Made by a program: the position numbers and the translations under genes. This document shows, piece after piece, positions 2 to 28,434 of a stretch of DNA of 64,000 nucleotides; positions within the stretch are counted from its first letter, which is position 1, and every line of letters begins with the position of its first letter. Below the pieces are notes generated by a model. That model was not told the origin of the DNA, did no database searches, and worked only from the letters and a program-made list of their open reading frames with translations. The stretch is from Candidatus Omnitrophota bacterium (GTDB taxonomy: Bacteria > Omnitrophota > Gorgyraeia > Gygaellales > Profunditerraquicolaceae): NCBI GenBank assembly GCA_963805065.1, contig CAWDSS010000010.1, forward strand, positions 856,359 through 920,358. Reading direction: 5' to 3'.

Positions 2-766
2 TTAAAAGGAAAGGCTGCAATAGTTACGGGTGCCAGCCGCGGGATAGGTAAGGCATTAGCTTCCACTGCAGCCAGCCTGGGCATTAATTTAGCCATTGCC
101 GCCCGTCAGGAAGGCCCGTTAAAAGAAACAGCCGAAGAAATCAGCAAAAAGTATAAAGTTGAAATTCTGCCGGTTCCCTGCGATGTGACAAAATTATCTG
201 ATTTGGAAAACCTGGTGAATAAAACTAAGGAAAAATTCGGCAAAGTTGATATCCTGATTAATAATGCCGGAGTTTCCAGCCAGTATCCTTTTGAAAAACA
301 GCCCTTTGAAGATTTTGAAAGCCTGGTGCACACCAATTATCTTGGTTATGTTCGCCTGATACGTCTGGTTATCAATGATATGATACAAAATAAATCCGGG
401 GCAATCATCAATATGGTGTCCGGTTCAACGCTTTGCGATCCGCTGCCCAGGAATTTTTTGGTATATAGTTCTCTTAAGGTAGGATTACGTGCTTTTTCCA
501 AAGGCTTATTCTGGGAGATGCGCGACCACGGAATAAAGATTACTTCCATTCTTCCCGGGGTCACGGACACAGATTTAACCGGAAAGTTAAAAGAAATAAC
601 CCAAGACACATCCCGGCTGATGACCACAGAGGCAATTGAAAACGCGCTGAGATTTGCTTTGACAGTCCCTGCGAATGTCTGTCCTCTTGAAATTTCAGTA
701 ATTAATCAACAGACTCCCTGGACAGCGCCGGTTATTCCTTATAAACAAGAGCACTTAAAGAAATAA
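2..766 (+). CDS. short-chain dehydrogenase/reductase (SDR), 5' end cut by window edge
   Basis: Frame from nt 2 reads LKGKAAIVTGASRGIGKA (TGxxxGIG Rossmann motif) and continues into the 185..766 ORF, which has NNAG and a YSSLK-type active-site region. Confidence 0.8.
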   Translation, partial: LKGKAAIVTGASRGIGKALASTAASLGINLAIAARQEGPLKETAEEISKKYKVEILPVPCDVTKLSDLENLVNKTKEKFGKVDILINNAGVSSQYPFEKQPFEDFESLVHTNYLGYVRLIRLVINDMIQNKSGAIINMVSGSTLCDPLPRNFLVYSSLKVGLRAFSKGLFWEMRDHGIKITSILPGVTDTDLTGKLKEITQDTSRLMTTEAIENALRFALTVPANVCPLEISVINQQTPWTAPVIPYKQEHLKK

Positions 767-780
767 GATAAGGAGGAAAT

Positions 781-1395
781 ATGAAAATAACTAGCCTAGT
801 CATGGTGTTAGCTGTCAGCTGTCAGCTGTCAGCTGTCAGCTGTTTTGCGCAAAGCCAGCCTCTTTTAATTGATGACTTTGAAGGAACTATTTCCGGAGGG
901 CCTGAAGGCACCGTGGATTTCGGTGCAGGAAATGGTTCATCGGTAGATGTAACAGCAGCAACAGATATTCAGCATTCCGGCAAGCAATCCATAAAAGTAA
1001 CATTTGATGCGGTCTCAGGCGGATATATATGGATTGCCCGTGGCTTTGGCTTGGATGCAAAAAACACCGCCTGGTTAATTAAACCAGAAAATATTCCCTG
1101 GAAAGACTATAGTGCAATATCCTTTTATATGTACGGGAACGATTCCAAAACGAAAGTCGCCTTTGACATTAAGGACAACGGAAATGAGATATGGCGTTAT
1201 GTTACAGAGGATAATTTTAAGGGCTGGAAGCAGATAGTTTGTCCGTTTAAAGATTTTGTTGTCCGTGATGACTGGCAGCCGGACAGCGCTGATAAAAATG
1301 CAGTATTAGATTTTCCTTTAAAAAGTTATCAATTTGAACCCAGGCCAGCAGCAAAAGGCACGCTTTACTTTGACCAGGTAGAATTAATAAAATGA
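781..1395 (+). CDS. secreted beta-sandwich protein (CIA30/CBM11-like carbohydrate-binding fold)
   Basis: SD AAGGAGG 6 nt upstream. N-terminal signal peptide ends CFA-Q. DDFEG...YFDQVEL pattern resembles CIA30/CBM-type domains. Confidence 0.5.
   Translation: MKITSLVMVLAVSCQLSAVSCFAQSQPLLIDDFEGTISGGPEGTVDFGAGNGSSVDVTAATDIQHSGKQSIKVTFDAVSGGYIWIARGFGLDAKNTAWLIKPENIPWKDYSAISFYMYGNDSKTKVAFDIKDNGNEIWRYVTEDNFKGWKQIVCPFKDFVVRDDWQPDSADKNAVLDFPLKSYQFEPRPAAKGTLYFDQVELIK
811..843 (+). repeat. (GCTGTCA)x4.7 perfect tandem heptamer array inside the signal-peptide coding region
   Basis: gctgtca repeated 4 times plus gctgt, read directly. Encodes AVSCQLSAVSC. Confidence 0.95.
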
Positions 1396-1793
1396 ATATG
1401 GAAAAAAACGACTCCAAGGACCTAAAAAAACGCTATCTTATCTGGTTGTATAAGACTGCCAAAGAAGCATGGGATAGAATCGAGCGTAAATTTACGCAGC
1501 TGGATATTGATAAACGCATGCTTAAAGAGCTGAAGAAGCTGGATAAGAACAGAAAATCCGCAAAGTTTATCGACGAGTTTGAGGCTTATATCAAAAGCAA
1601 GGAGATTGAAGGTCTGACCCTTAAATACGAGAATAACGATCTTAAGGCTGATTATAATTTCCTGGCCTTGAAATTAAAAGCCGTGGAAAAAGCAATACTT
1701 AAGGAATTCGGCAACAAGGGCCTGCAGGAGATAAAATCCCTGTATGAAAAAGAAATGGTTGAGCGTATCTTAAAAAGCACAGAGGTAAAATGA
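1392..1793 (+). CDS. hypothetical Lys/Glu-rich, probably coiled-coil protein
   Basis: ORF with ATGA overlaps to both neighbours (translational coupling). No recognisable motif. Confidence 0.5.
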   Translation: MNMEKNDSKDLKKRYLIWLYKTAKEAWDRIERKFTQLDIDKRMLKELKKLDKNRKSAKFIDEFEAYIKSKEIEGLTLKYENNDLKADYNFLALKLKAVEKAILKEFGNKGLQEIKSLYEKEMVERILKSTEVK

Positions 1794-3460: not shown

Positions 3461-4374
3461 TGAAATTTTCACCACTCTTTTGGCCCATTCAATTAAAAGC
3501 CAATACCATCTACATACTTGATGAAACAGCCCTGCCGCAAAAGCTAAAACCTATAAAGGCGAAAAATTACCTGCAAGCCTGTAAGGCAATAAAACAGATG
3601 AAAACCCGCGCAGTAGGCCAGGTATTATTGGTAATGTATACATTTATTTTAGCCAATAGGGAGGGTGAGGATTTAAATAAAGTCGCCCGGGCAATTAATG
3701 CAGCCAGGCCGACTTTGTCTTTTAAATTTTTAACAGACATGGTTTTAGGCTGGGCTAAAAAAGGAGTCCCCTTAGAAAAAAGTATTCTGGGTTTCTTAGA
3801 AATGTTAAAACACAAGCGCATCCAGCAGGCAGAAGCCGTAGCTAAATTAATCAAGCATAAAGATGTAATACTTACGCATTGTAATGTCAGCGGGCTCATG
3901 CCTTTAATTGCTGAATTTTGTAAGAAACAGGGTAAGAGCGTAAGTTTTTTTGTTACGGAAACCAGGCCGTATTTACAAGGTTCCCGCTTAAGCGCCTGGG
4001 AATTAAACAGGGGAGGATTCGATGTGACCATAATTACCGATAATATGGCAGCTTGTGTTATGTCGCAAGGTAAAATCAATAAAGTTATCGTCGGCGCAGA
4101 CAATTTAGCCCAAAACGGGGATTTCGCCAATAAAATCGGCACTTATCAGATTGCGCTTTTGGCAAGACATTTTAAAATACCTTTTTATGTGCTCTGCCCG
4201 CCGGCTTCCAGTGCTAAGACAGGCAAAGATATTAAAATAGAAATCAGGCCTGACAAGGAATTATTGGAGTTTGCAGGAGTGCGTTTAGCGCCTGCCGGAG
4301 CAAAGGCGTATTACCCGGCTTTTGATGTAACGCCGGCAAGATTAGTTACTAAACATATTTATCTTGAGGTTTAA
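3460..4374 (+). CDS. mtnA: (methylthio/deoxy)ribose-1-phosphate isomerase, eIF-2B alpha/beta/delta family
   Basis: VGADNLAQNGDFANKIGTYQIALLARHFKIPFYV and PAFDVTPARLVT match the MtnA/eIF2B signature region. Confidence 0.75.
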   Translation: MKFSPLFWPIQLKANTIYILDETALPQKLKPIKAKNYLQACKAIKQMKTRAVGQVLLVMYTFILANREGEDLNKVARAINAARPTLSFKFLTDMVLGWAKKGVPLEKSILGFLEMLKHKRIQQAEAVAKLIKHKDVILTHCNVSGLMPLIAEFCKKQGKSVSFFVTETRPYLQGSRLSAWELNRGGFDVTIITDNMAACVMSQGKINKVIVGADNLAQNGDFANKIGTYQIALLARHFKIPFYVLCPPASSAKTGKDIKIEIRPDKELLEFAGVRLAPAGAKAYYPAFDVTPARLVTKHIYLEV

Positions 4375-5375: not shown

Positions 5376-6814
5376 GACAGCATAGTAAAATAATTAATCC
5401 CTCCAATGGAGAAGTTATAACTGAAGTTGCACTTGCTTCCAGCCAGGACGTAGAAGAGGCAATCAGCATGGCTCGTGATGCCTTTGATAACGGCCCTTGG
5501 AGCCGTATTTCTCTGGATGAGCGCAAAAATTATCTTTTAAAGATTAACCAGGGCATACTTGAGAAAGCAGGAGAGCTGGCGCGCCTCGAAACTCTTAATA
5601 CCGGAAAACCCATTAAAGAATCTACTTTTATGGATATTCCCTCGGCGGCCAAAACTTTTGAAGTTATTGCCCATAACTTCCAGAAATATTTGGTCGAAGA
5701 AAATCCCGTATTGGAAGCTGAAGCCGAGGCTAAACTAATCAGAGAGCCAAGAGGGGTTGTGGTTTTGATAGTCCCCTGGAACTATCCTTTATTAATTGCC
5801 TGCTGGAAATTAGCCTCTAGCTTAGCTGCTGGTAATACGGTTATTCTAAAGCCTTCCAGCCTAACTCCCTTGACTGCGTTAGAATTGGCAAAGATTATTG
5901 ACGCAGCTGGTTTACCAAAGGGTGCGGTTAATGTAATTAACGGGAGCGGAGAAACAATAGGCAAGCAATTATGTTCTGACAAGCGCCTGGATTTGATTTC
6001 TTTTACCGGTAGCAATGCAGTCGGTAAAAAGATTATAGGCTATACCTGCGAGAACGTTAAAAAGCTGATTATGGAATTAGGCGGCAAGTCTGCTTCCATA
6101 GTCTTAAAAGATGCAGATTTAGAGCTGGCTGTAAATGGTTCTTTATGCTCGACATTCTTAAATCAGGGGCAGATGTGCACTGCCATGTCGCGCATTTTTA
6201 TAGAAGATAAGATTTATGATAATTTTGTTAATGATTTTGTGAAAAAAACAAAATCTATAAAGTTGGGGCAGAGTCAGGAGCACGAAACGCAGATGGGCCC
6301 GTTAATTTCCCAGGCCCAGCGTAACAAAGTAATGGCTTATGTCCAGCAAGCTAAAAAAGAGGGAGCGAAATTGTTATGTGGCGGCAAGATCCCCGATAAT
6401 AAAGAATTAAAAAACGGATTTTTCTTTGAACCGACTATTCTTGCAGGTGTTACTCCTGTAATGACTATTTTCAGGGAAGAAGTTTTTGGCCCGGTAGTTT
6501 GCCTGAATAAATTCTCCGGCATAGATGAAGCGCTAAATTTAGCTAATACCAGCGATTTTGCCTTGGCCTGCTCTATCTGGACAAAAAATGAAACTGAAAC
6601 CTTGAGCCTGGCAAAAAAAATCAATGCCGGGATAATCTGGATTAATACTTACGGGATGTTTTATGACCAAGCCCCTTATGGAGGGTTTAAGCAAAGCGGA
6701 TTCGGCAAAGAATTAGGCAAAGAAGGTTTTCTGGAATATACGCGCCTTAAAAATATAATAATAGATAAACTCAAGGATTCTAAGCCCCTGGTAAATTATT
6801 GGTACGGCTTCTAA
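5372..6814 (+). CDS. NAD(P)-dependent aldehyde dehydrogenase
   Basis: ELGGKSA and NQGQMCTA (catalytic Cys) motifs; 480 aa. Confidence 0.85.
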   Translation: MRQHSKIINPSNGEVITEVALASSQDVEEAISMARDAFDNGPWSRISLDERKNYLLKINQGILEKAGELARLETLNTGKPIKESTFMDIPSAAKTFEVIAHNFQKYLVEENPVLEAEAEAKLIREPRGVVVLIVPWNYPLLIACWKLASSLAAGNTVILKPSSLTPLTALELAKIIDAAGLPKGAVNVINGSGETIGKQLCSDKRLDLISFTGSNAVGKKIIGYTCENVKKLIMELGGKSASIVLKDADLELAVNGSLCSTFLNQGQMCTAMSRIFIEDKIYDNFVNDFVKKTKSIKLGQSQEHETQMGPLISQAQRNKVMAYVQQAKKEGAKLLCGGKIPDNKELKNGFFFEPTILAGVTPVMTIFREEVFGPVVCLNKFSGIDEALNLANTSDFALACSIWTKNETETLSLAKKINAGIIWINTYGMFYDQAPYGGFKQSGFGKELGKEGFLEYTRLKNIIIDKLKDSKPLVNYWYGF

Positions 6815-6818
6815 AAAT

Positions 6819-8324
6819 ATGAACGTTGCCAGCATTTTAGAGACAAAAGCAAAGGCACTCTCTGGTAAGCCCGCCATAATCTTTAAAGACCAGGCTATCA
6901 GCTTCGGGCAATTAAAAGAATATGCATTCAAGCTGGCAGACAGCCTTATAAAACTTGGGCTAAAAAAAGGCGATAAGGTAGCAATATACCTGCCCAATTG
7001 GCCGGAGTATATTTACAGCTATTTAGCTATCTGGTGCTGCGGTGCGACTGCAGTGCCGTTGGATTTCATGCTTACCGACGATGAATTAATGTCCTGTATT
7101 TCCCACTCCGAAGCAAAAATACTTATTGCAAAGCATAAAGCTACACTTTCCTTGCCAAAAATTAAACAAAATTGCCCTCATTTAGAAAAGATTATCTTAT
7201 GTCATGAAATTCAGGAAGGTTGCCAAAGTTTTGAGCAATTAATTGAAAAAGGGAACCCCAAAAATCCGGGAATTAAAATCCAGGATAAGGATTATGCGAT
7301 AATTTTCTACACCTCAGGCACTACTGGTAAGCCTAAGGGCGTACTTATTAACTATCTGCAATTAGATGCTCCGCCCAAGTCTATGGAGTTTTTTGTAGAC
7401 TTGAATTCCTCCGACATTACCTTATGCGCTTTGCCATTTTCTCATTTAGGCGGGCTTATTTACATTCAGAACTGTATTGCTTACGGCTTAACCATTGTTT
7501 TAATGGAACGTTTTATGCCTCTTGAATTCCTGAAAAACATTGAAACTTATAAAATAACCTGTTTCTGGATAGTCCCTTCCATGTATTATGCAGTTTTACA
7601 GTTAAAGGAGTTTGAAAGCTTTGATTTGTCGAGTTTGCGCTGGATTGTCACATTTGGAGCATCCAATTCTCCTGATGCCTTAAGAAGATTCCTGCAATTT
7701 TGCCCTAAGGCGCATCTTTTAAACGGCTGGGGCCTCACAGAGACTAATGCGCCCACCACGGTTTTACCTATGGGCTCAAAAAAAATAGAGAGCGTAGGCA
7801 GGCCTGCTCCCTGGATTGAGGTAAAGATATTTGACGATGCTGATAAAGAGGTAGTGAAAGGAAACATGGGAGAAGTGGTAGTAAAAAGCTGGGTGGTTAC
7901 CGATGGATATTACAAAGACACTGTATTAACTCAAGAGGTTTTGTGCAATGGCTATTTTCATACCGGAGATTTAGGCAGGTTTGACAGCGACGGCCATTTA
8001 TATATCGTGGGCAGGAAAAAAGAAATGATCAAGGTGGGTGGTGAAATTGTTTTTGAGCCGGAAGTAGAATCCGTAATCCATAAACATCCTGATGTCGCAG
8101 AAGTAGCTGTTGTGGGTGTGCCTGATAAATTAAGAGGAGAGGTGCCTAAGGCGTTTATAGTTTTTAAAGAAAATAAAAGTATCCCGGAAGAAGATTTACG
8201 TTTTTTCCTGCGCCAGCATTTAGCGCATTTTAAAATTCCCCATTATTTTGAGTTTAGAAGCTCACTCCCTAAGAACCGCATAGGCAAGATAGACAAAGAG
8301 TCCCTAAGGAGGGACACCCTGTAA
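6819..8324 (+). CDS. AMP-forming acyl-CoA synthetase/ligase
   Basis: YTSGTTGKPKGV (AMP-binding P-loop), TGD and GRKKEMIKVGG motifs. Confidence 0.85.
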   Translation: MNVASILETKAKALSGKPAIIFKDQAISFGQLKEYAFKLADSLIKLGLKKGDKVAIYLPNWPEYIYSYLAIWCCGATAVPLDFMLTDDELMSCISHSEAKILIAKHKATLSLPKIKQNCPHLEKIILCHEIQEGCQSFEQLIEKGNPKNPGIKIQDKDYAIIFYTSGTTGKPKGVLINYLQLDAPPKSMEFFVDLNSSDITLCALPFSHLGGLIYIQNCIAYGLTIVLMERFMPLEFLKNIETYKITCFWIVPSMYYAVLQLKEFESFDLSSLRWIVTFGASNSPDALRRFLQFCPKAHLLNGWGLTETNAPTTVLPMGSKKIESVGRPAPWIEVKIFDDADKEVVKGNMGEVVVKSWVVTDGYYKDTVLTQEVLCNGYFHTGDLGRFDSDGHLYIVGRKKEMIKVGGEIVFEPEVESVIHKHPDVAEVAVVGVPDKLRGEVPKAFIVFKENKSIPEEDLRFFLRQHLAHFKIPHYFEFRSSLPKNRIGKIDKESLRRDTL

Positions 8325-8367
8325 TTCAATCGAGGGACACCCTGTAATTCAAAGCTAAGGGTGTCCC
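8309..8367 (+). repeat. 21-nt direct duplication (GAGGGACACCCTGTAATTCAA x2, 23-nt period) followed by the complementary arm GGGTGTCCC
   Basis: Read directly. Copy 1 contains the acyl-CoA ligase stop codon. Either GGGACACCC copy can pair with GGGTGTCCC (8359..8367). Confidence 0.9.
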
Positions 8368-11256: not shown

Positions 11257-12349
11257 TATATGAGCTATCCATTTAAAGAAATCGAAGAAAAGTGGCAGGC
11301 ATATTGGGCAAAACAGGAAGCCTTTAGCGTAAGAGAAGACTCTGCCAGAAAGAAATTCTATCTTCTGGAAATGTTCCCCTATCCGTCGGGAAAAATTCAC
11401 ATGGGCCATGTGCGTAATTATACTATCGCAGATGTTGCAGCCAGATTTAAGATGATGCAGGGGTTTAATGTTCTGCATCCCATGGGTTTTGACGCATTTG
11501 GCCAGCCCGCAGAAAACGCCGCCATAAAAAATAAAACCAAGCCCGATATCTGGACGCATAAATGCATTAACTGGATGCAGCAGGAATTAAAGAAAATGGG
11601 GTTTTCCTATGATTGGGAAAGAGAAGTTTCTACTTGCGACAGCGATTATTATAAATGGAACCAGTGGATATTTTTAAAAATGTTTGAGCGGGGCCTGGCG
11701 TACAAAAAAGCCTCTTCAGTTAATTGGTGCCCTTCCTGCGAAACGACCTTAGCTAATGAAGAGGTAATTGATGGCGGCTGTTGGCGGTGCAAAACCAAGG
11801 TAGAGCAAAAGGATTTGGAACAATGGTATCTAAAGATTACTGAATATAAAGAGCGCTTGTTAGAAGATTTAAAACAACTTAAAGATTGGCCGGAGAAGGT
11901 ATTAGCAATGCAGACCAACTGGATCGGCAAAAGCCAGGGAGTCCAGATATTATTTTCGCCTGAAAGAGGCTAATGCCGTCATACCGGTTTTTACTACCCG
12001 GGTGGATACTATTTTTGGCGCAACTTATATTGTATTAGCTCCGGAGCATCCGTTAGTCAAAGAGATCATTAAAGATAAACCCCAGGAAAAAGAAGTATTA
12101 AAGTTTATCGATAAAGTTGCCAAAGAAAGCAAAGTTGTGCGCACGGCCTCGGATGTTAAAAAAGAGGGAGTTTTTACCGGCGGCTACGCAATAAATCCGG
12201 TTAATAATGAAGAAGTTCCTATCTGGGTTGCTGATTATGTATTAATGGAATATGGTACAGGCGCGATAATGGCTGTGCCCACGCATGACCAGCGGGATTT
12301 TCTGTTTGCCAAAGAACATAAACTGCCGATGCGTATTGTTATCCAGCCT

Positions 12350-12381
12350 CAGAACCCAGAACCCAGAACCCAGAACCCATT
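12350..12381 (+). repeat. (CAGAACC)x4 + CATT heptamer array, in-frame in leuS
   Basis: Read directly. Encodes [11 protein letters not shown]. Identical 32-mer at 27524..27555. Confidence 0.95.
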
Positions 12382-13179
12382 AACTGAAGCCTACGAAGGC
12401 GACGGCATTCAGGTTAATTCCGGACAATTCAACGGGCTTAACAATCAGCAAGCCAAGCTTAAAATTGCCGAATGGATGGAGAAAACCCATATTGGCAAAA
12501 TCCAAACTCATTGGCGTTTACGCGACTGGCTGATTTCCCGTCAGCGTTATTGGGGCACGCCTATCCCAATGATTTATTGTGCGAAATGCGGTATTGTGCC
12601 TGTGCCGTACAAAGACCTTCCGGTAGAATTACCCAAGGATGCCCCTTTTACAGGAGAAGGCGGCAGCCCATTAGCCAAGGTAAAGGAATTTGTTAATGTC
12701 AAATGCCCGAAATGTAATGGCCCAGCTCGCCGGGAAACCGATACCATGGCCACATTCTTTGATTCTTCCTGGTATTTCTTAAGATTTTGTTCTCCTAAGT
12801 TTAATTACGGGCCATTTGATCAAGGTAGCGCAAAATACTGGATGCCGGTTGATCAATATATTGGCGGTATTGAACATGCTATCCTGCATTTATTGTATTC
12901 ACGTTTTTTTACCAAATTTTTTAAAGACTTAGGGCTGATAGATTTTGATGAACCATTCAGGAAATTGTTAACGCAGGGCATGGTATTAAAAGACGGCGAA
13001 GTAATGTCTAAGTCACGCGGCAATATTGTTGACCCGGATTCCATTATTAAGAATTATGGCGCAGATACCTTAAGGTTATTTATTTTATTTGCCGCTCCTC
13101 CTGAAACTGAATTGGAGTGGGATGATCGTGGCATAGAGGGGGCTTTCAAATTCTTAAACCGGGTATGGCGCATTAAAGA

Positions 13180-13211
13180 AAGTCAAAACTTAAAAGCCAA
13201 AAGTCAAAACT
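13180..13211 (+). repeat. degenerate A-rich heptamer array (units TCAAAAC/TTAAAAG/CCAAAAG/TCAAAAC), in-frame in leuS
   Basis: AAGTCAAAACT recurs with a 21-nt period. About 25/30 nt identical to the lnt array at 27982. Confidence 0.8.
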
Positions 13212-13818
13212 CGAATGAAGACGGCTTAATTAAAACCAGAAAGAAAATGCATGAGACTATTAAAGAAGTCAGCGAAGATATAGAGAATTTTAAATTTAAT
13301 ACTGCTATAGCAAGCTTAATGGAATTAGTAAATACCATCTATCAGTTTGGGGCAGATGAGGAAATATTCTCCAAGTTAGTAATCATGCTTAGCCCCATCG
13401 TCCCGCATTTTGCCGAGGAATTATGGCAGAAGCTGGGTAACAAGGAAAGCATCATCCGGGCTCATTGGCCGCAATACGACCCCAAGATGTTGATTGAAGA
13501 AACAGTTACTATTGTAATCCAGATAAACGGCAAACTGCGCTCAAAAATTGATGTTCCCTCAGACATCTCCGAAGAAAAACTTAAGGAACTTGTGTTTGCC
13601 GATGAAAGATTACAGCCCTGGCTTCAGGGGAAACCCCTCAAAAATTTCATCGTAGTCCCCAAAAAACTGGTTAACATAGTAGTCTAAATCCTCTCCTTTG
13701 CCCGGATATTTGCATTTTCATCAGAGTTAGAAGTTTTTGTCCTGCTTAAGATTAATGCATTTTTGCTTAGCCTGCCTTTTGCGTATTTTAGCTTGTAAAA
13801 TTGAATCGGAGCGGGGGG

Positions 13819-24013: not shown

Positions 24014-26935
24014 ATGTTAAAATTAATCAGAAAAACAATCCTGGAAAACAAGCAGAAGCGTATCAGGCCAGGTTCCCCGGAGTAAATATTACTTTGCATC
24101 CGGAAATGCCCAATCCTTCCCTGAACAAGATGATAGAATTAAGCCGGATTGTGAATGCCATAAACGTGCTGGAACCTAAAATCAGCGCTCTTTCCGATGC
24201 CGAGCTTAAGGCTAAAACAGCCGGATTTAAAGAACATTGCCTAAAGAGGTCCCGGGAATACGAGCAGGAATTGCAGGAATTGGCAGAGTCGATGATGGCA
24301 GTGGCGATTCCTGAAGAGAAAGAGAAATTAAAGAAAAAAGTCAGGGATGTACGCAATAAAATCTTTGAGGAAATATTACCGGAAGCATTCGCGGTTGTAA
24401 GAGAAGCCTCCAGGCGCACAATTGGTCTTAGGCATTTTGATGTGCAGATGCTGGAGGGGTAGTCTTGCATGAGGGCAGGATTGCGGAGATGGCTACCGGT
24501 GAAGGAAAAACTTTGGTGGCAACTTTGCCTGCCTACCTTAATGCATTATTGGGGCAAGGTGTACATGTAGTTACAGTAAATGATTATCTTGCCCGGCGCG
24601 ACCGCGAGTGGATGGGCCCGATTTATGAATTTTTAGGGCTTTCGGTAGGGGTAATACAGCATGAAATGTCCGATGAGGAGAGAAAAATTGCCTATGCCTG
24701 CGATATAACCTACGGGACAAACAATGAATTCGGTTTTGATTATCTGCGCGACAATATGAAATACGGTTTGAATGATTTGGTGCAGAGGCCTTTCTATTAT
24801 GCAATCGTGGACGAAGTAGATTCCATACTTATTGATGAAGCGCGCACGCCGCTAATCATTTCAGGCCCCGCAGAGGAATCTACGGAAAAATATTACACCG
24901 CCAAGAAAATAGCAGACCAGCTAAGAGGAAGGCGGGTTACTGAAAGAGATCAAATCGATGCCAAATACAAGGGAGAAGATTTATCTAAGGGTTTTGATTA
25001 TCTTGCGGATGAGAAGGCCCAGACAGTAGCTTTAACTGAAGAGGGAGAAATAAAAGCAGCTAAGCTTTGGGGCGTAGAAAGTCTGCATCAGCTAGAGACC
25101 ATAGAATATCGTCACCATACTATCCAGGCCTTACGCGCAAAAGAATTTTTTGAACGGGATGTTGATTATGTGGTTAAAGATGGAGAGGTAATTATAGTCG
25201 ATGAATTTACCGGCCGCATGATGCCCGGAAGGCGCTGGTCAGACGGGTTGCATCAGGCAGTGGAGTCAAAAGAAGGCTTAAAAATCGAACGCGAAAATCA
25301 GACCTTAGCTACTATTACCTTCCAGAATTATTTCCGCATGTATGAAAAATTGGCAGGCATGACCGGAACTGCATTTACCGAGGCAAATGAATTTGAAAGC
25401 ATATACCAGCTGGATGTCGTGGTAGTGCCTACCAATAGGCCCTTAATACGTAACAATTAGCCCGGACAGGGTTTATAAAACAGAGAAGGAAAAATTTAAC
25501 GCTGTAGTAGAAGAAATTGCCGAACATTATAACAATGGAAAGCCCGTCTTAGTCGGTACCATTACTATTGATAAATCAGAGCGGCTTTCCGAAATGTTAA
25601 AAAGGCGCGGGATTACCGCATCAGGTGCTTAATGCCAAGTATCACGAGATGGAAGCGCAAATCGTTGCGCAGGCCGGCAGGTACAAAGCAGTAACTATTG
25701 CCACCAATATGGCAGGCCGCGGAACGGATATTTTATTAGGCGGCAACCCCGAATTCATTGCTAAAAACGTGATTAAACAAAAACTAAAACCAGAAGATCC
25801 TATTTATCAGGAGGAGTATAAAAAACTGCTGGATAAATACAAAAGAGAAACAGAAGAAGAACATAAAAAGGTTGTGGAGTTGGGAGGCTTGCATGTTTTG
25901 GGTACAGAACGTCATGAGGCCCGGCGTATTGATAATCAGCTACGCGGCCGGTCAGGCAGGCAGGGTGATCCTGGGTCATCCAGATTTTATGTAGCATTGG
26001 GAGATGATTTAATGCGTTTGTTTGGTTCTGACAGGCTGATCGGCATAATGGATAAGCTGGGATTAGAGGAAGGCCAGGTTATAGAGCATCCGTGGGTGGC
26101 GCGTTCCATAGAAATGGCGCAGAGGCGCGTAGAACAGCATAATTTTGAAATCAGAAAACAACTCCTGGAGTATGACAACGTTATGAATAAGCAGCGGGAA
26201 ATTATTTATGGCCAGCGTAGACAAACCCTGGAAGGGATTTCTTTAAAGGAAGAAGTAGAAGGGATAATTGAGAGGCTCATTGAAGACACCGTAGCAATTC
26301 ACATTCCAGATAACCAGGAGCCTGATGTGGCGGGTTTAGTAAGTATTATGAATTTGAAATTCGGCCTCGGGTTAGAAGTCCCCAAGATAGAAAATTTAAA
26401 CAAGGCCGATTTGAAAGATAAATTATCAGAAGATACGGTTAGCGCATATAACGAGAAAGAGAAGACAATCGGGACAGATTTGATGCGGCATCTTGAGCGC
26501 ATGGTATTTTTGCAGATTATTGACAGCAAATGGAAGGACCACCTTTATGCAATGGATAGCCTAAAAGAAGGGATAGGTCTACGCGCTTATGGGCAACGCG
26601 ATCCCTTGGTAGAATATAAACGTGAGGCATTTGAAATGTTCAGTCAGATGATTGCTTCTATAGAAGATGAGGCAGTGGAAGCGATATTTAAATTGCAGCC
26701 TCCCAAACAGGAAATATTCCGCGGCGTATTTAGCAGAGCTTCTCAGGAATTAATTCATCCCGAGGCAGTTAAATTCCAGAGGCCGCAAAACGAACCGGAA
26801 GAAATAACTGAAAGCCGGTTGCAGCCACAGTCAGCGCCTGCCTCTATCCCCCAACAATCCCATCCGAAGGTAGGAAGAAACGATCCTTGCCCCTGCGGCT
26901 CAGGCAAAAAATACAAAAAATGCTGCGGAAGATAA
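24014..26935 (+). pseudogene. secA: preprotein translocase ATPase SecA, split into four frames by single-base indels and with an anomalous 5' end
   Basis: Fragments 24094..24462, 24465..25460, ~25458..25632 and 25625..26935 together read as a complete SecA ([20 protein letters not shown] Walker A, C-terminal [14 protein letters not shown] zinc motif). Confidence 0.9.
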
Positions 26936-28434
26936 AACCATTAAAGTTTTGCATATTATCGGCGATCATCCTGGCTTTGCCATATGCGAACGCAAAGTTA
27001 TGGATTTTTGCCTGGTTTGGTTTCCTGCCTTTATTGGCTGCTCTTGCGGGTAAATCTAAACCTAAGGCATTCTTATTATCTTATCTTACGGGAATTATTT
27101 TCTGGACGCTGGTTATTTACTGGTTAGTGCATGTTACATTGCCAGGCACAATTATTCTCATTTTATATTTGGCATTATATTTTGGGATATTTGGCGTTTT
27201 AGTTACGAGCATCGAGCATCGAGCATCGAGCATCCTATTTTTGATTCCAGCCATATGGGTTTTGCTGGAATACGCGCGTTCACATCTATTGACGGGTTTT
27301 CCCTGGGCGCTTTTAGCTTATTCCCAGTATGAGAATTTGCCCATTATACAGATCGCAGATATAACGGGAGCGTGGGGAGTGTCGTTTGTGGTGATGTTAG
27401 TAAATACAACCGTTTATGGGGTTCTAGGTTCTAGGTTCTCGGTTCTAGGAAAAATCAAGAAATGCATACCTGTTTTATTATGTATTATTGTTGTACTTGG
27501 TTATGGATATTATAAGCTTTTGCCAGAACCCAGAACCCAGAACCCAGAACCCATTCGTATATCCGTCATTCAAGGAAACATCCCCCAGGAATTAAAATGG
27601 GACTCTTCCGCCAGGCAATATATTTTAAGCCAATACGCAAGATTAACAAGACAGGCAGCCAAAGACCATCCCGGCCTGATTATTTGGCCGGAAGCAGCCA
27701 GCCCCGGGTTATTAGGAGAAGATGATGCAGTTTTTGAAGAAATTGATTCTTTGGCAAGGAATGTCAAGGTGCCGTTACTCGTCGGAACAGTAGCCAAAGA
27801 CGGCAAGGAATATTTTAACAGCGCCATATTGATTAATCCAAGCGGTGAAATTGCCGCCCGTTACAATAAATTACACCTTGTCCCCTTCGGAGAATACATA
27901 CCTTTAAAGAAATACCTTCCGTTTCTGGAGACTATAGTTCCAATAGGAGATATCACAAGGGGTAAGGAATATACAATATTCCAAAACTTAAAACCTAAAA
28001 CGCAAAACGCGGAAAAATTTGCGGTTTTAATTTGCTTTGAAGATTTATTCCCTGAGCTTTCACGTAAGTTTATTCAGGGGGGGGCTCAATTTTTAGTTAA
28101 TATAACTAATGATGCATGGTATAAGGAAACCTCAGCACCTTATCAACATTTACAGGCATCGGTATTCAGGGCTGTGGAAAATCGCGTATTCTTAGTGCGC
28201 GCTGCCAATACAGGCATTTCCGGGTTTATTGCGCCTAGCGGAAGAATCGTATCTATTGTGCACGGCAAAAGGGACAGAGAAATATTTACCGATGGATACG
28301 AAACCCTGGAGATTCCGCTTCCTATTCCTAAGTCAAGCCCAACTTTTTATAACCGCTGTGGTGATTATTTTGTGTTGATTTGCTTTTTTACTTTTACCTT
28401 TTTGCTTTTACCTTTTAACTTTTTAAAAGATTAA
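26920..28434 (+). CDS. lnt: apolipoprotein N-acyltransferase
   Basis: Multi-TM N-terminal half plus CN-hydrolase domain (WPE, LICFE catalytic Cys, NITNDAW). Confidence 0.85.
27207..27234 (+). repeat. (GAGCATC)x4 perfect heptamer array, in-frame in lnt
   Basis: Read directly. Encodes SIEHRASSI. Confidence 0.95.
27420..27449 (+). repeat. (GGTTCTA)x4 heptamer array (third unit GGTTCTC), in-frame in lnt
   Basis: Read directly. GGTTCTN is the reverse complement of NAGAACC. Encodes [10 protein letters not shown]. Confidence 0.95.
27524..27555 (+). repeat. (CAGAACC)x4 + CATT heptamer array, in-frame in lnt
   Basis: Identical 32-mer to leuS 12350..12381. Encodes [10 protein letters not shown]. Confidence 0.95.
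27982..28016 (+). repeat. degenerate A-rich heptamer array (CAAAACT TAAAACC TAAAACG CAAAACG CGGAAAA), in-frame in lnt
   Basis: Read directly. Homologous to leuS 13180..13211. Encodes [12 protein letters not shown]. Confidence 0.8.
28383..28425 (+). repeat. degenerate T-rich heptamer array (CTTTTAC CTTTTTG CTTTTAC CTTTTAA CTTTTTA) at the lnt 3' end
   Basis: Read directly. Its reverse complement is NNAAAAG, the same family as the A-rich arrays. Encodes [12 protein letters not shown]. Confidence 0.8.

Follow-up and report, generated by a model that had tools for sequence, protein, structure and literature searches.

A heptanucleotide array in the putative signal-peptide codons of a CBM11-like gene of Candidatus Omnitrophota: contingency locus or inherited coding microsatellite?

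Is a short heptanucleotide array in the 5' part of a gene for a predicted secreted, CBM11-like carbohydrate-binding protein an ON/OFF switch for that protein, or does it reflect a mutational property of the lineage that carries it? The question is raised by a 64,000-nt stretch of a Candidatus Omnitrophota genome (contig CAWDSS010000010.1; hereafter the window), in which a first-pass annotation had proposed a slipped-strand contingency locus. We consider it fairly probable that the array is an inherited, slippage-prone coding microsatellite that is held in frame by selection and constitutes a latent source of OFF alleles, not a demonstrated switch. The evidence comes from orthologous arrays of constant length, from arrays of the same class in the genes for Lnt and leucyl-tRNA synthetase (LeuRS), and from whole-unit indels in other Omnitrophota species.

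The array and the putative signal peptide that it encodes

The period-7 run is perfect over 34 nt (810..843), where every base equals the base seven positions further on with zero exceptions, and comprises 4.86 units of AGCTGTC. This is the array that had been annotated at 811..843 as 4.7 units of GCTGTCA; the perfect heptamer run stands and only its extent is corrected. Tandem Repeats Finder (TRF) gives the wider bounds 806..843 (5.4 copies, 96% matches) because the leading unit, TGTTAGC, deviates by a single base, so that the letters of this segment read TGTTAGC, then (TGTCAGC)4, then TGT. By our own estimate, in which a per-base match probability of about 0.26 gives 0.26^27 x 64,000 positions, 27 consecutive self-matches are expected by chance about 1e-11 times per 64-kb window. 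As had been stated, the GCTGTCA unit contains no stop codon in any forward phase (GCT, CTG, TGT, GTC, TCA, CAG and AGC).

The 204-aa product matches Pfam family PF03425 with 85 bits against a cut-off of 27 (E=8.2e-24; profile positions 14-180 of 182, residues 29-203). Its 738 homologues are mostly 200-205 aa long, and those with a named source come from Omnitrophota or Omnitrophica. The protein begins with MKITSLVMVLAVSCQLSAVSCFAQSQ, in which the array encodes residues 11-21 (A11-C21, AVSCQLSAVSC), in agreement with the earlier annotation. On inspection, this N-terminus looks like a Sec signal peptide: K2 is basic, residues 3-21 are hydrophobic, and C-F-A↓Q (the arrow marks the cleavage point) aligns with the conserved xFA↓Q of the orthologues, in whose alignment a conserved (F/A/S)-A-Q/E precedes the mature domain. 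Cleavage by signal peptidase I is likely at this conserved site. The signal peptide also contains a PROSITE-style lipobox (SAVS↓C21), the cysteine of which is not conserved, since a lipobox-like pattern is present in only 45 of 118 orthologues.

When alleles with altered unit number were rebuilt in silico, changes of -2, -1, +1 and +2 units resulted in peptides of 25, 26, 32 and 33 aa, respectively, terminated by nearby stops. A 197-aa protein (MKITSLVMVLAVSCFAQSQ...) resulted from the loss of three units and a 211-aa protein from a gain of three, both being otherwise unaltered in sequence. The annotation was thus right that a one-unit change would shift the frame and truncate the protein and that a three-unit change would alter only the length of the signal peptide. 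The tract accordingly has the architecture of a frame switch, with a unit that is not a multiple of three in the 5' part of the open reading frame (ORF) and a unit number that sets the frame. A stop at codon 25-33 could, in addition, be polar on the translationally coupled next ORF.

The palindrome CAGCTG is present in every unit, and the array is therefore predicted to form a hairpin as single-stranded DNA (-10.7 kcal/mol, z=-3.2). For RNA, folding of 765..875 gave no significant structure (z=-1.34), and we rejected mRNA structure as a regulator on this ground. Likewise, the hairpin was rejected as a property of the whole class of arrays, as GCTGTCA folds, CAGAACC arrays do not, and CGAGCAT does so only weakly.

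No relative of this CBM11 protein more than 83% identical emerged from searches with the protein, from its cluster, from scans of genomes and metagenomes, or from a look-up of contigs by exact protein. The exact protein forms a one-member cluster from a single contig and had no entry in the exact-protein look-up, the next relative is 83% identical, and 79% was the highest identity in the genome and metagenome scans; the CBM11 homologues included no truncated product of about 100% identity. An array-type signal peptide is present in five of the 121 orthologues (P0001, P0002, P0241, P0013 and P0025), which have signal peptides of identical length and share the non-repeat part as well. The other 116 possess unrelated signal peptides that are 3 aa shorter. 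In a crude neighbour-joining tree of the mature domain, P0013 and P0025 are separated from the window protein, so that the array-bearing CBM11 proteins may not be monophyletic; the whole signal peptide is nevertheless homologous among the array-bearing orthologues, these two included. Another orthologue, P0044, contains QTQTQTQTQ, with a 2-aa period, just past the signal-peptide cleavage region.

DNA of two relatives shows what has become of the array elsewhere. Its sequence is GCTGTCA GTTGTTT AATGTTA GCTGTAA GCTGC, with 8 mismatches, in L085, which at about 83% protein identity is the closest known genome, and GCTGTTA GCTGCCA ATTGTCA GCTCTCA GCGCT in L001 (72% identity), with 7 mismatches, of which five are synonymous. 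Both are 33 nt long, as in the window, and the array must therefore predate these splits, with its length kept. The lineage-unique changes amount to 6 (L085) and 5 (L001) of the 33 nt, compared with per-site values of 11% and 16% for the mature part; the decay of the array has thus been about as fast as that of the gene as a whole, with the protein intact. What we found in related lineages is thus decay at constant length, not a tract kept perfect with variable length, and the orthologue comparison suggested in the first-pass annotation goes in part against the switch proposed there. The window itself lies on the shortest branch (6.1% unique changes), for which 2 changes would be expected in 33 nt and the probability of none is 0.13. 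Its perfect copy is therefore compatible with simple retention and needs no special maintenance; on the same figures, we rejected the idea that recent homogenisation is required.

Sister arrays and whole-unit indels

Among periods 5-15, perfect arrays of at least 3 copies occur in the window at period 7 only (n=4, with 4.1-4.9 copies). With mismatches allowed, five arrays were detected at period 7 and none at the other periods tested in these 64 kb of genome. For the imperfect arrays of Lnt, TRF counts about 4.1-4.3 copies in two heptamer arrays and 5.6 in the C-terminal one. All arrays of the window are located within ORFs and in frame, in the genes for CBM11, LeuRS and Lnt (Table 1), and among the 65 long ORFs array-type 7-aa periodic peptides are encoded only by CBM11, LeuRS (two sites) and Lnt. 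This bears out the earlier assignment of the CBM11 array to the same class as those of essential genes (LeuRS 12350..12379, Lnt 27206..27553). The unit CAGAACC is found at 12350 and 27523, with a near-complement at 27420. An identical string of 32 nt (CAGAACC x4 + CATT) is present in LeuRS (12350..12381) and in Lnt hotspot 3 (27524..27555), i.e. in unrelated genes 15 kb apart, and includes the phase and 2 flanking bases. The single mismatch of the array at 27420..27449 is a TCG (27439..27441) exactly where a perfect array would yield an in-frame TAG. Heptamer arrays are not a general property of Omnitrophota DNA, an idea that we rejected because neither 784 kb around the CBM11 orthologues of other genomes nor 42 kb from the closest relative (L082, L085) contained a period-7 array.

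In the phylum at large, these arrays recur at the same sites of the same proteins. At least one exact 7-aa periodic run is present in 85 of 120 Lnt homologues, which contain 179 such runs in total, as opposed to 0-36 for each other period of 3-12 aa; they cluster at about five recurrent positions. At the sites of the window arrays, the nearest Lnt homologues have different 7-aa periodic peptides of about equal length, and the two sites that were examined by alignment to E. coli Lnt are gapped, poorly conserved stretches between conserved blocks. In DNA of L084, L087 and L093, heptamer arrays of 3.6-6.4 copies are found at the Lnt sites, and L087 has one octamer array and one intergenic array in addition. 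LeuRS has two hotspots, one after HDQRDF..RIVI and the other near residue 645, and members of one cluster can differ there altogether, even where the cluster identity is at least 90%. Lengths of the LeuRS hotspot segments include 42, 49 and 56 aa, in steps of three heptamers, and only in these family-wide length classes is a 7-aa quantisation seen. The coding arrays are not, in general, simple +21-nt insertions relative to orthologues, a possibility that we dismissed since the Lnt sites are of about equal length in all orthologues, the CBM11 array-type signal peptide is longer by 3 aa, and the LeuRS segment of the closest relative (L085) is non-repetitive and 23 aa longer.

Units are shared between genes as well as within them. 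The peptide SAVSCQLSAVS of the CBM11 signal peptide is also found in the Lnt of P0178 and P0190; in L093, the source of P0178, it is encoded by TCAGCTG x4.7, with the unit, frame and copy number of the CBM11 array. The peptide unit families QNPEPRT, TIDHRPS, NPKSEIR and IQHPASS each occur in both LeuRS and Lnt. Within Lnt, about 780 nt separate hotspots 1 and 4. The two often have a common unit in one genome, and this unit differs from genome to genome; DNA of L093 (CAAGTAC x5.0 and x4.9) and L084 shows this, as do the peptides of P0165, P0178, P0187, P0191 and P0204. This identity suggests conversion or copying between arrays. In L087, the release-factor gene ends at its C-terminus in a 6.4-copy heptamer array, (AGAAACC)3 + (AGTAACC)3.4 (6552..6596), the unit of which is one mismatch off the window's CAGAACC.

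Direct evidence of slippage is available for other species. We compared 15 contigs of one other Omnitrophota species that are 99.7-100% identical (0-23 single-nucleotide polymorphisms each against the reference). Seven of these (L086-L092) come from seven samples and are 99.74-99.86% identical over 12-13 kb, with 36 listed substitution sites. Among all 15 contigs there are only two indels, both of them whole-unit losses in arrays. The first, in five contigs, is a loss of 8 nt, one CCGTTTGC unit, from a 4.6-copy octamer array at the Lnt N-terminus (L087 9819..9855 and homologous sites), at the junction of the SecA stop and the Lnt start, which leaves a 3.6-copy allele. The long allele uses an upstream ATG (MLRKI...), and the short one places the Lnt body in the SecA frame; it is possible that the short allele employs a TTG inside the array as the Lnt start, so that the start codon would be switched by repeat number. 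The second indel, in L086 only, is a loss of 7 nt, one CTACCTA unit, from the array of about four copies at Lnt hotspot 4, and splits Lnt into ORFs of 328 and 132 aa (L086 9424..10805 versus L087 10001..11389); the 14 other contigs have the intact allele. The eight further contigs of this species revealed no additional indel, with a bias to in-frame alleles because they were retrieved by exact in-frame protein. The intergenic regions of L086-L092 (e.g. L087 ~600..800 and ~4250..4330) also contain recurring inverted-repeat elements with the core CATAACTTATG/CATAAGTTATG, unrelated to the heptamer arrays.

A second species is represented by L094 and L095, which are 97.5% identical over 5.95 kb and are distinguished by a single indel of 21 nt, or three units, located in a decayed TCAGTTG array. 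The pair L082 and L083 was set aside as uninformative, since the two sequences are identical and lack arrays. Whole-unit indels among near-identical contigs show that arrays of the size of the CBM11 array slip in nature: it has 4.9 units, and arrays of 3.9-4.6 units vary by one unit in the L086-L092 species. Arrays of this size are the dominant indel sites in these genomes and yield both frameshift and in-frame alleles.

Alternative explanations and known repeat systems

According to the reading that we prefer, the array would have been inherited from an ancestor of at least four Omnitrophota lineages and would now supply the h/c-region of a Sec-type signal peptide. It would belong to a 7-nt class, present in some Omnitrophota lineages, that presumably originates and changes by strand slippage; gene-internal members would be kept at about 4-5 units because only three-unit changes (21 nt, 7 aa) preserve the frame. 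The CBM11 array probably slips at a rate similar to that of its sister arrays, giving OFF alleles (+/-1 and +/-2 units) and presumably viable alleles with shorter or longer signal peptides (+/-3), and such variants would be side effects of a mutational property of the lineage as a whole rather than the output of a dedicated switch under selection. Several points weigh against this account. The slippage rate of the CBM11 array is extrapolated from other species and other units, and the array has an identical length in four lineages, which could mean that it is effectively stable. Local slippage alone does not explain the sharing of units between distant sites, as between LeuRS and Lnt hotspot 3 of the window or, in L093, L084 and several proteins, between hotspots 1 and 4 of Lnt, and this is the main point left unexplained. 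Finally, the product is secreted, of the kind that is often under the control of real contingency loci, so that a selected switch is conceivable, if improbable.

That alternative, a dedicated contingency locus in which slipped-strand mispairing toggles the secreted CBM11 protein and selection maintains the tract for this purpose, seems unlikely to us as a whole; it may extend to the downstream operon through translational coupling or polarity. The part of the earlier proposal that holds is the architecture, which is that of known translational switches such as the heptanucleotide repeat in the 5' coding sequence of neuO (PMC13001214), together with the slippage of the class elsewhere: in a related species, arrays of similar size undergo changes of a single unit. 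The product is predicted to be extracytoplasmic, the window tract is perfect while those of L085 and L001 have decayed, and the hairpin of the unit could stabilise slipped intermediates. However, the tract has only 4.9 units, few in comparison with neuO, and equal length in four lineages, in two of which it decays at the neutral rate with the gene retained, and its perfect copy in the window is statistically not unusual (P=0.13). Identical arrays are found in LeuRS and Lnt, two genes in which they cannot serve for switching, the CBM11 gene lies in the middle of an operon, and no ON/OFF polymorphism was observed for the exact protein in its one-member cluster.

The sharing of units could instead point to active writing or copying, in which a sequence-specific process (template switching, ectopic gene conversion or a dedicated enzyme) would insert or overwrite blocks of about 4-5 units, drawn from a few heptamer families, wherever a site is permissive, the CBM11 array then being one insertion and not locally grown. 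The 32 nt common to LeuRS and Lnt, phase and flanking bases included, the genome-specific units of Lnt hotspots 1 and 4, the stop-avoiding mismatch in the array at 27420, and the recurrence of unit families across genes and genomes (TCAGCTG in CBM11 and Lnt, and the four peptide families of LeuRS and Lnt) all agree with it. We nevertheless regard such a process as distinctly improbable. The arrays are concentrated at a few hotspots of the same genes throughout the phylum, with none in the 784 kb of CBM11 neighbourhoods, and those of the window are confined to CBM11, LeuRS and Lnt, which fits inheritance with concerted evolution better than ongoing insertion. Some recurrence of units is to be expected because stop-free units with tolerable peptides in all three frames are a restricted set, and no candidate enzyme was identified.

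Related to this, but broader, is an idea to which we give only a small chance, namely that some Omnitrophota possess an undescribed system in which a few unit families occupy fixed hotspots of proteins that are conserved and mostly essential, and are kept there either by a dedicated mechanism of copying or homogenisation or for the sake of population heterogeneity. Its sites would be Lnt, LeuRS, the release factor, the SecA/Lnt junction and occasionally others, such as the CBM11 signal peptide, where the array would act as a functional frameshift fuse on the secreted protein and its operon. The arrays, of about 4-5 units, would be homogenised or copied between sites and undergo frequent whole-unit changes, at a rate that lets frameshifted alleles of essential genes turn up in assemblies from natural populations.

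It is very improbable that DNA slippage is irrelevant and that the periodicity is selected as the AVSCQLS peptide or as an mRNA hairpin. The array is able to pair with itself, and the peptide AVSCQLS(A/V)(V/L)S is retained in five orthologues, but the remaining 116 of 121 manage with unrelated signal peptides shorter by 3 aa, and the perfect identity of the units extends to all synonymous positions. Nor is the RNA fold of 765..875 exceptional, and CAGAACC arrays of the same class lack any fold.

The suspicion of an assembly or sequencing artefact derives from other genes of the window. SecA (24076..26935) is found in four frame pieces with junctions near short runs of G, C or A. LeuRS (11260..13687) runs in frame 1 over 11260..11973 and in frame 2 from ~11942, and its junction (11950..11956), tta-tttt-cgc, contains one surplus T that causes an apparent +1 frameshift; the deposited LeuRS gene call is a fragment of 561 aa (P0288). 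These apparent homopolymer frameshifts, three in SecA and one in LeuRS, suggest indel errors of a long-read consensus or, alternatively, real pseudogenisation of essential genes. For the array itself, an artefact has an almost negligible probability: the arrays are without exception in frame, a decayed array of equal length occupies the same codons in independent assemblies (L001 from Logan, L085 from JGI), and the class is also present in Illumina/MEGAHIT contigs. Being in frame and corroborated in this way, the CBM11 array is unaffected by the apparent homopolymer errors.

Among known phase-variable genes, the closest in position are the opa genes of Neisseria, in which, as Stern and colleagues are said to have reported in 1986, a coding (CTCTT)n repeat is found within the signal-peptide region. 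In both cases, a repeat with a unit that is not a multiple of three encodes the hydrophobic leader core of an exported protein, and the frame sets expression. In contrast, opa has a pentamer, longer tracts, a multigene family, a host-adapted pathogen and documented phase variation. The heptanucleotide (AAGACTC)n in the 5' coding region of neuO, the O-acetyltransferase gene of the E. coli K1 prophage CUS-3, has 3-53 units, most commonly 20, and is ON if the repeat number is divisible by 3 (PMC13001214). Of 64 genomes, 66% are OFF, both ON and OFF alleles are common, and the switching has been measured (PMC13001214). The CBM11 array resembles it in the 7-nt unit at the 5' end of the ORF, in full-length translation in one of three unit-number classes, and in in-frame changes that add or remove blocks of 7 aa. 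It differs in having 4.9 units known here from one contig and in belonging to an array type that is also found in housekeeping genes.

A different kind of comparison is offered by dispersed heptamers. PMC4692102 and PMC4679880 credit Mrazek et al. 2007 with an excess of heptamers among the long simple sequence repeats (LSSRs) of bacterial genomes. The short tandemly repeated repetitive (STRR) sequences of cyanobacteria and the GGGNATC repeats of Xanthomonas and Nostoc, which have a marked preference for about four units, belong to the same comparison class, and polymerase slippage favoured by a 7-nt contact length has been proposed as the cause of heptamer arrays. Like these repeats, the arrays described here show a genome-specific period-7 excess and one unit dispersed over many loci. 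Unlike them, they are not mainly intergenic and under-represented in coding DNA; those of the window are all gene-internal and in frame, and Omnitrophota arrays recur at homologous hotspots of conserved proteins phylum-wide. According to PMC4679880, the TAACTGA direct repeats of marine Beggiatoaceae, cyanobacteria and Bacteroidetes are likewise short sets (2-6 copies), dispersed in the genome and common to distant lineages, with a mechanism that is not known. The same source describes the reverse orientation, TCAGTTA, as stop-free and present in some ORFs; it differs from TCAGCTG at 2 of 7 positions, a likeness that could be due to chance (about 0.2 over all phases and strands by our estimate). 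In contrast to the arrays of the window, TAACTGA repeats are located mostly just 5' of start codons, with stops in all frames of the forward unit; a regulatory role in RNA binding has been proposed for them, and the parts of PMC4679880 consulted give no population data on indels.

Our literature search returned no paper on tandem repeats in Omnitrophota, and the literature searched contained no description of coding, in-frame arrays of essential genes at phylum-conserved hotspots. If the CBM11 array were a true switch, it would be a rare case of phase variation by a simple sequence repeat in a free-living or episymbiotic candidate phylum rather than in a pathogen, with a secreted glycan-binding protein and the metabolic operon coupled to it as the targets. 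We consider the wider observation more valuable, i.e. in-frame hotspot arrays in Lnt and LeuRS with shared units, lengths quantised by 7 aa and natural single-unit frameshift alleles. It offers a natural system for two old questions, the over-representation of 7-nt repeats in some bacteria and the spread of dispersed arrays of the same unit. In the annotation of metagenome-assembled genomes, such arrays will produce apparent pseudogenes and hypervariable loops.

Gene neighbourhood and feature coordinates

The first-pass annotation had made the CBM11 gene the first of a tightly coupled operon. The coupling is present downstream, with ATGA overlaps at 1392 and 1790, and the position is not: a short-chain dehydrogenase/reductase (SDR) gene on the same strand ends 14 nt upstream, which places the CBM11 gene in mid-operon. 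The 133-aa ORF that follows it precedes genes for amidohydrolase_2, PNP_UDP_1, IF-2B/MtnA-like, aldolase_II, Aldedh (aldehyde dehydrogenase) and AMP-binding proteins, and these genes overlap or are separated by at most 12 nt. The syntenic locus of L001 has the order ACP, cyclase, cyclase-like, SDR, CBM11 orthologue, small ORF and amidohydrolase.

Table 1. Coordinates of the array, its gene context and the other repeats in the window
Feature	Position	Strand	Basis or remark
SDR gene, 5' end cut by window start	185..766	+	ends 14 nt before CBM11 start
Shine-Dalgarno AGGAGG	771..776	+	read directly; 4 nt 5' of ATG
CBM_11-like carbohydrate-binding protein gene, predicted secreted, 204 aa	781..1395	+	Pfam PF03425, E=8e-24
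Putative signal-peptide coding part, M1-A23 = MKITSLVMVLAVSCQLSAVSCFA	781..849	+	translation; orthologue alignment
Heptanucleotide tandem array	806..843	+	perfect 810..843; imperfect leading unit TGTTAGC 806..812
133-aa ORF	1392..1793	+	ATG overlaps CBM11 stop (ATGA)
CAGAACC x4.29, LeuRS, phylum-wide hotspot	12350..12379	+	perfect, in frame
Decayed array, second LeuRS hotspot (SQNLKAKSQN)	13181..13210	+	TRF and LeuRS comparison
SecA pieces	24076-24459; 24453-25457; 25465-25614; 25610-26929		frames 1; 3; 1; 2
CGAGCAT x4.14, Lnt hotspot 1 (SIEHRASSI)	27206..27234	+	perfect, in frame
GGTTCTA x4.3, Lnt hotspot 2	27420..27449	+	one mismatch; TRF
CCAGAAC x4.43, Lnt hotspot 3	27523..27553	+	perfect
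Imperfect period-7 array, Lnt hotspot 4	27982..28010	+	81-91% matches
Imperfect period-7/14 array TTTTACC/TTTTACT, Lnt C-terminus	28385..28423	+	TRF

Further along the window, a perfect 23-nt direct repeat (GAGGGACACCCTGTAATTCAATC, x1.9; 8309..8352) covers the end of the AMP-binding gene and the short gap before rlmN.

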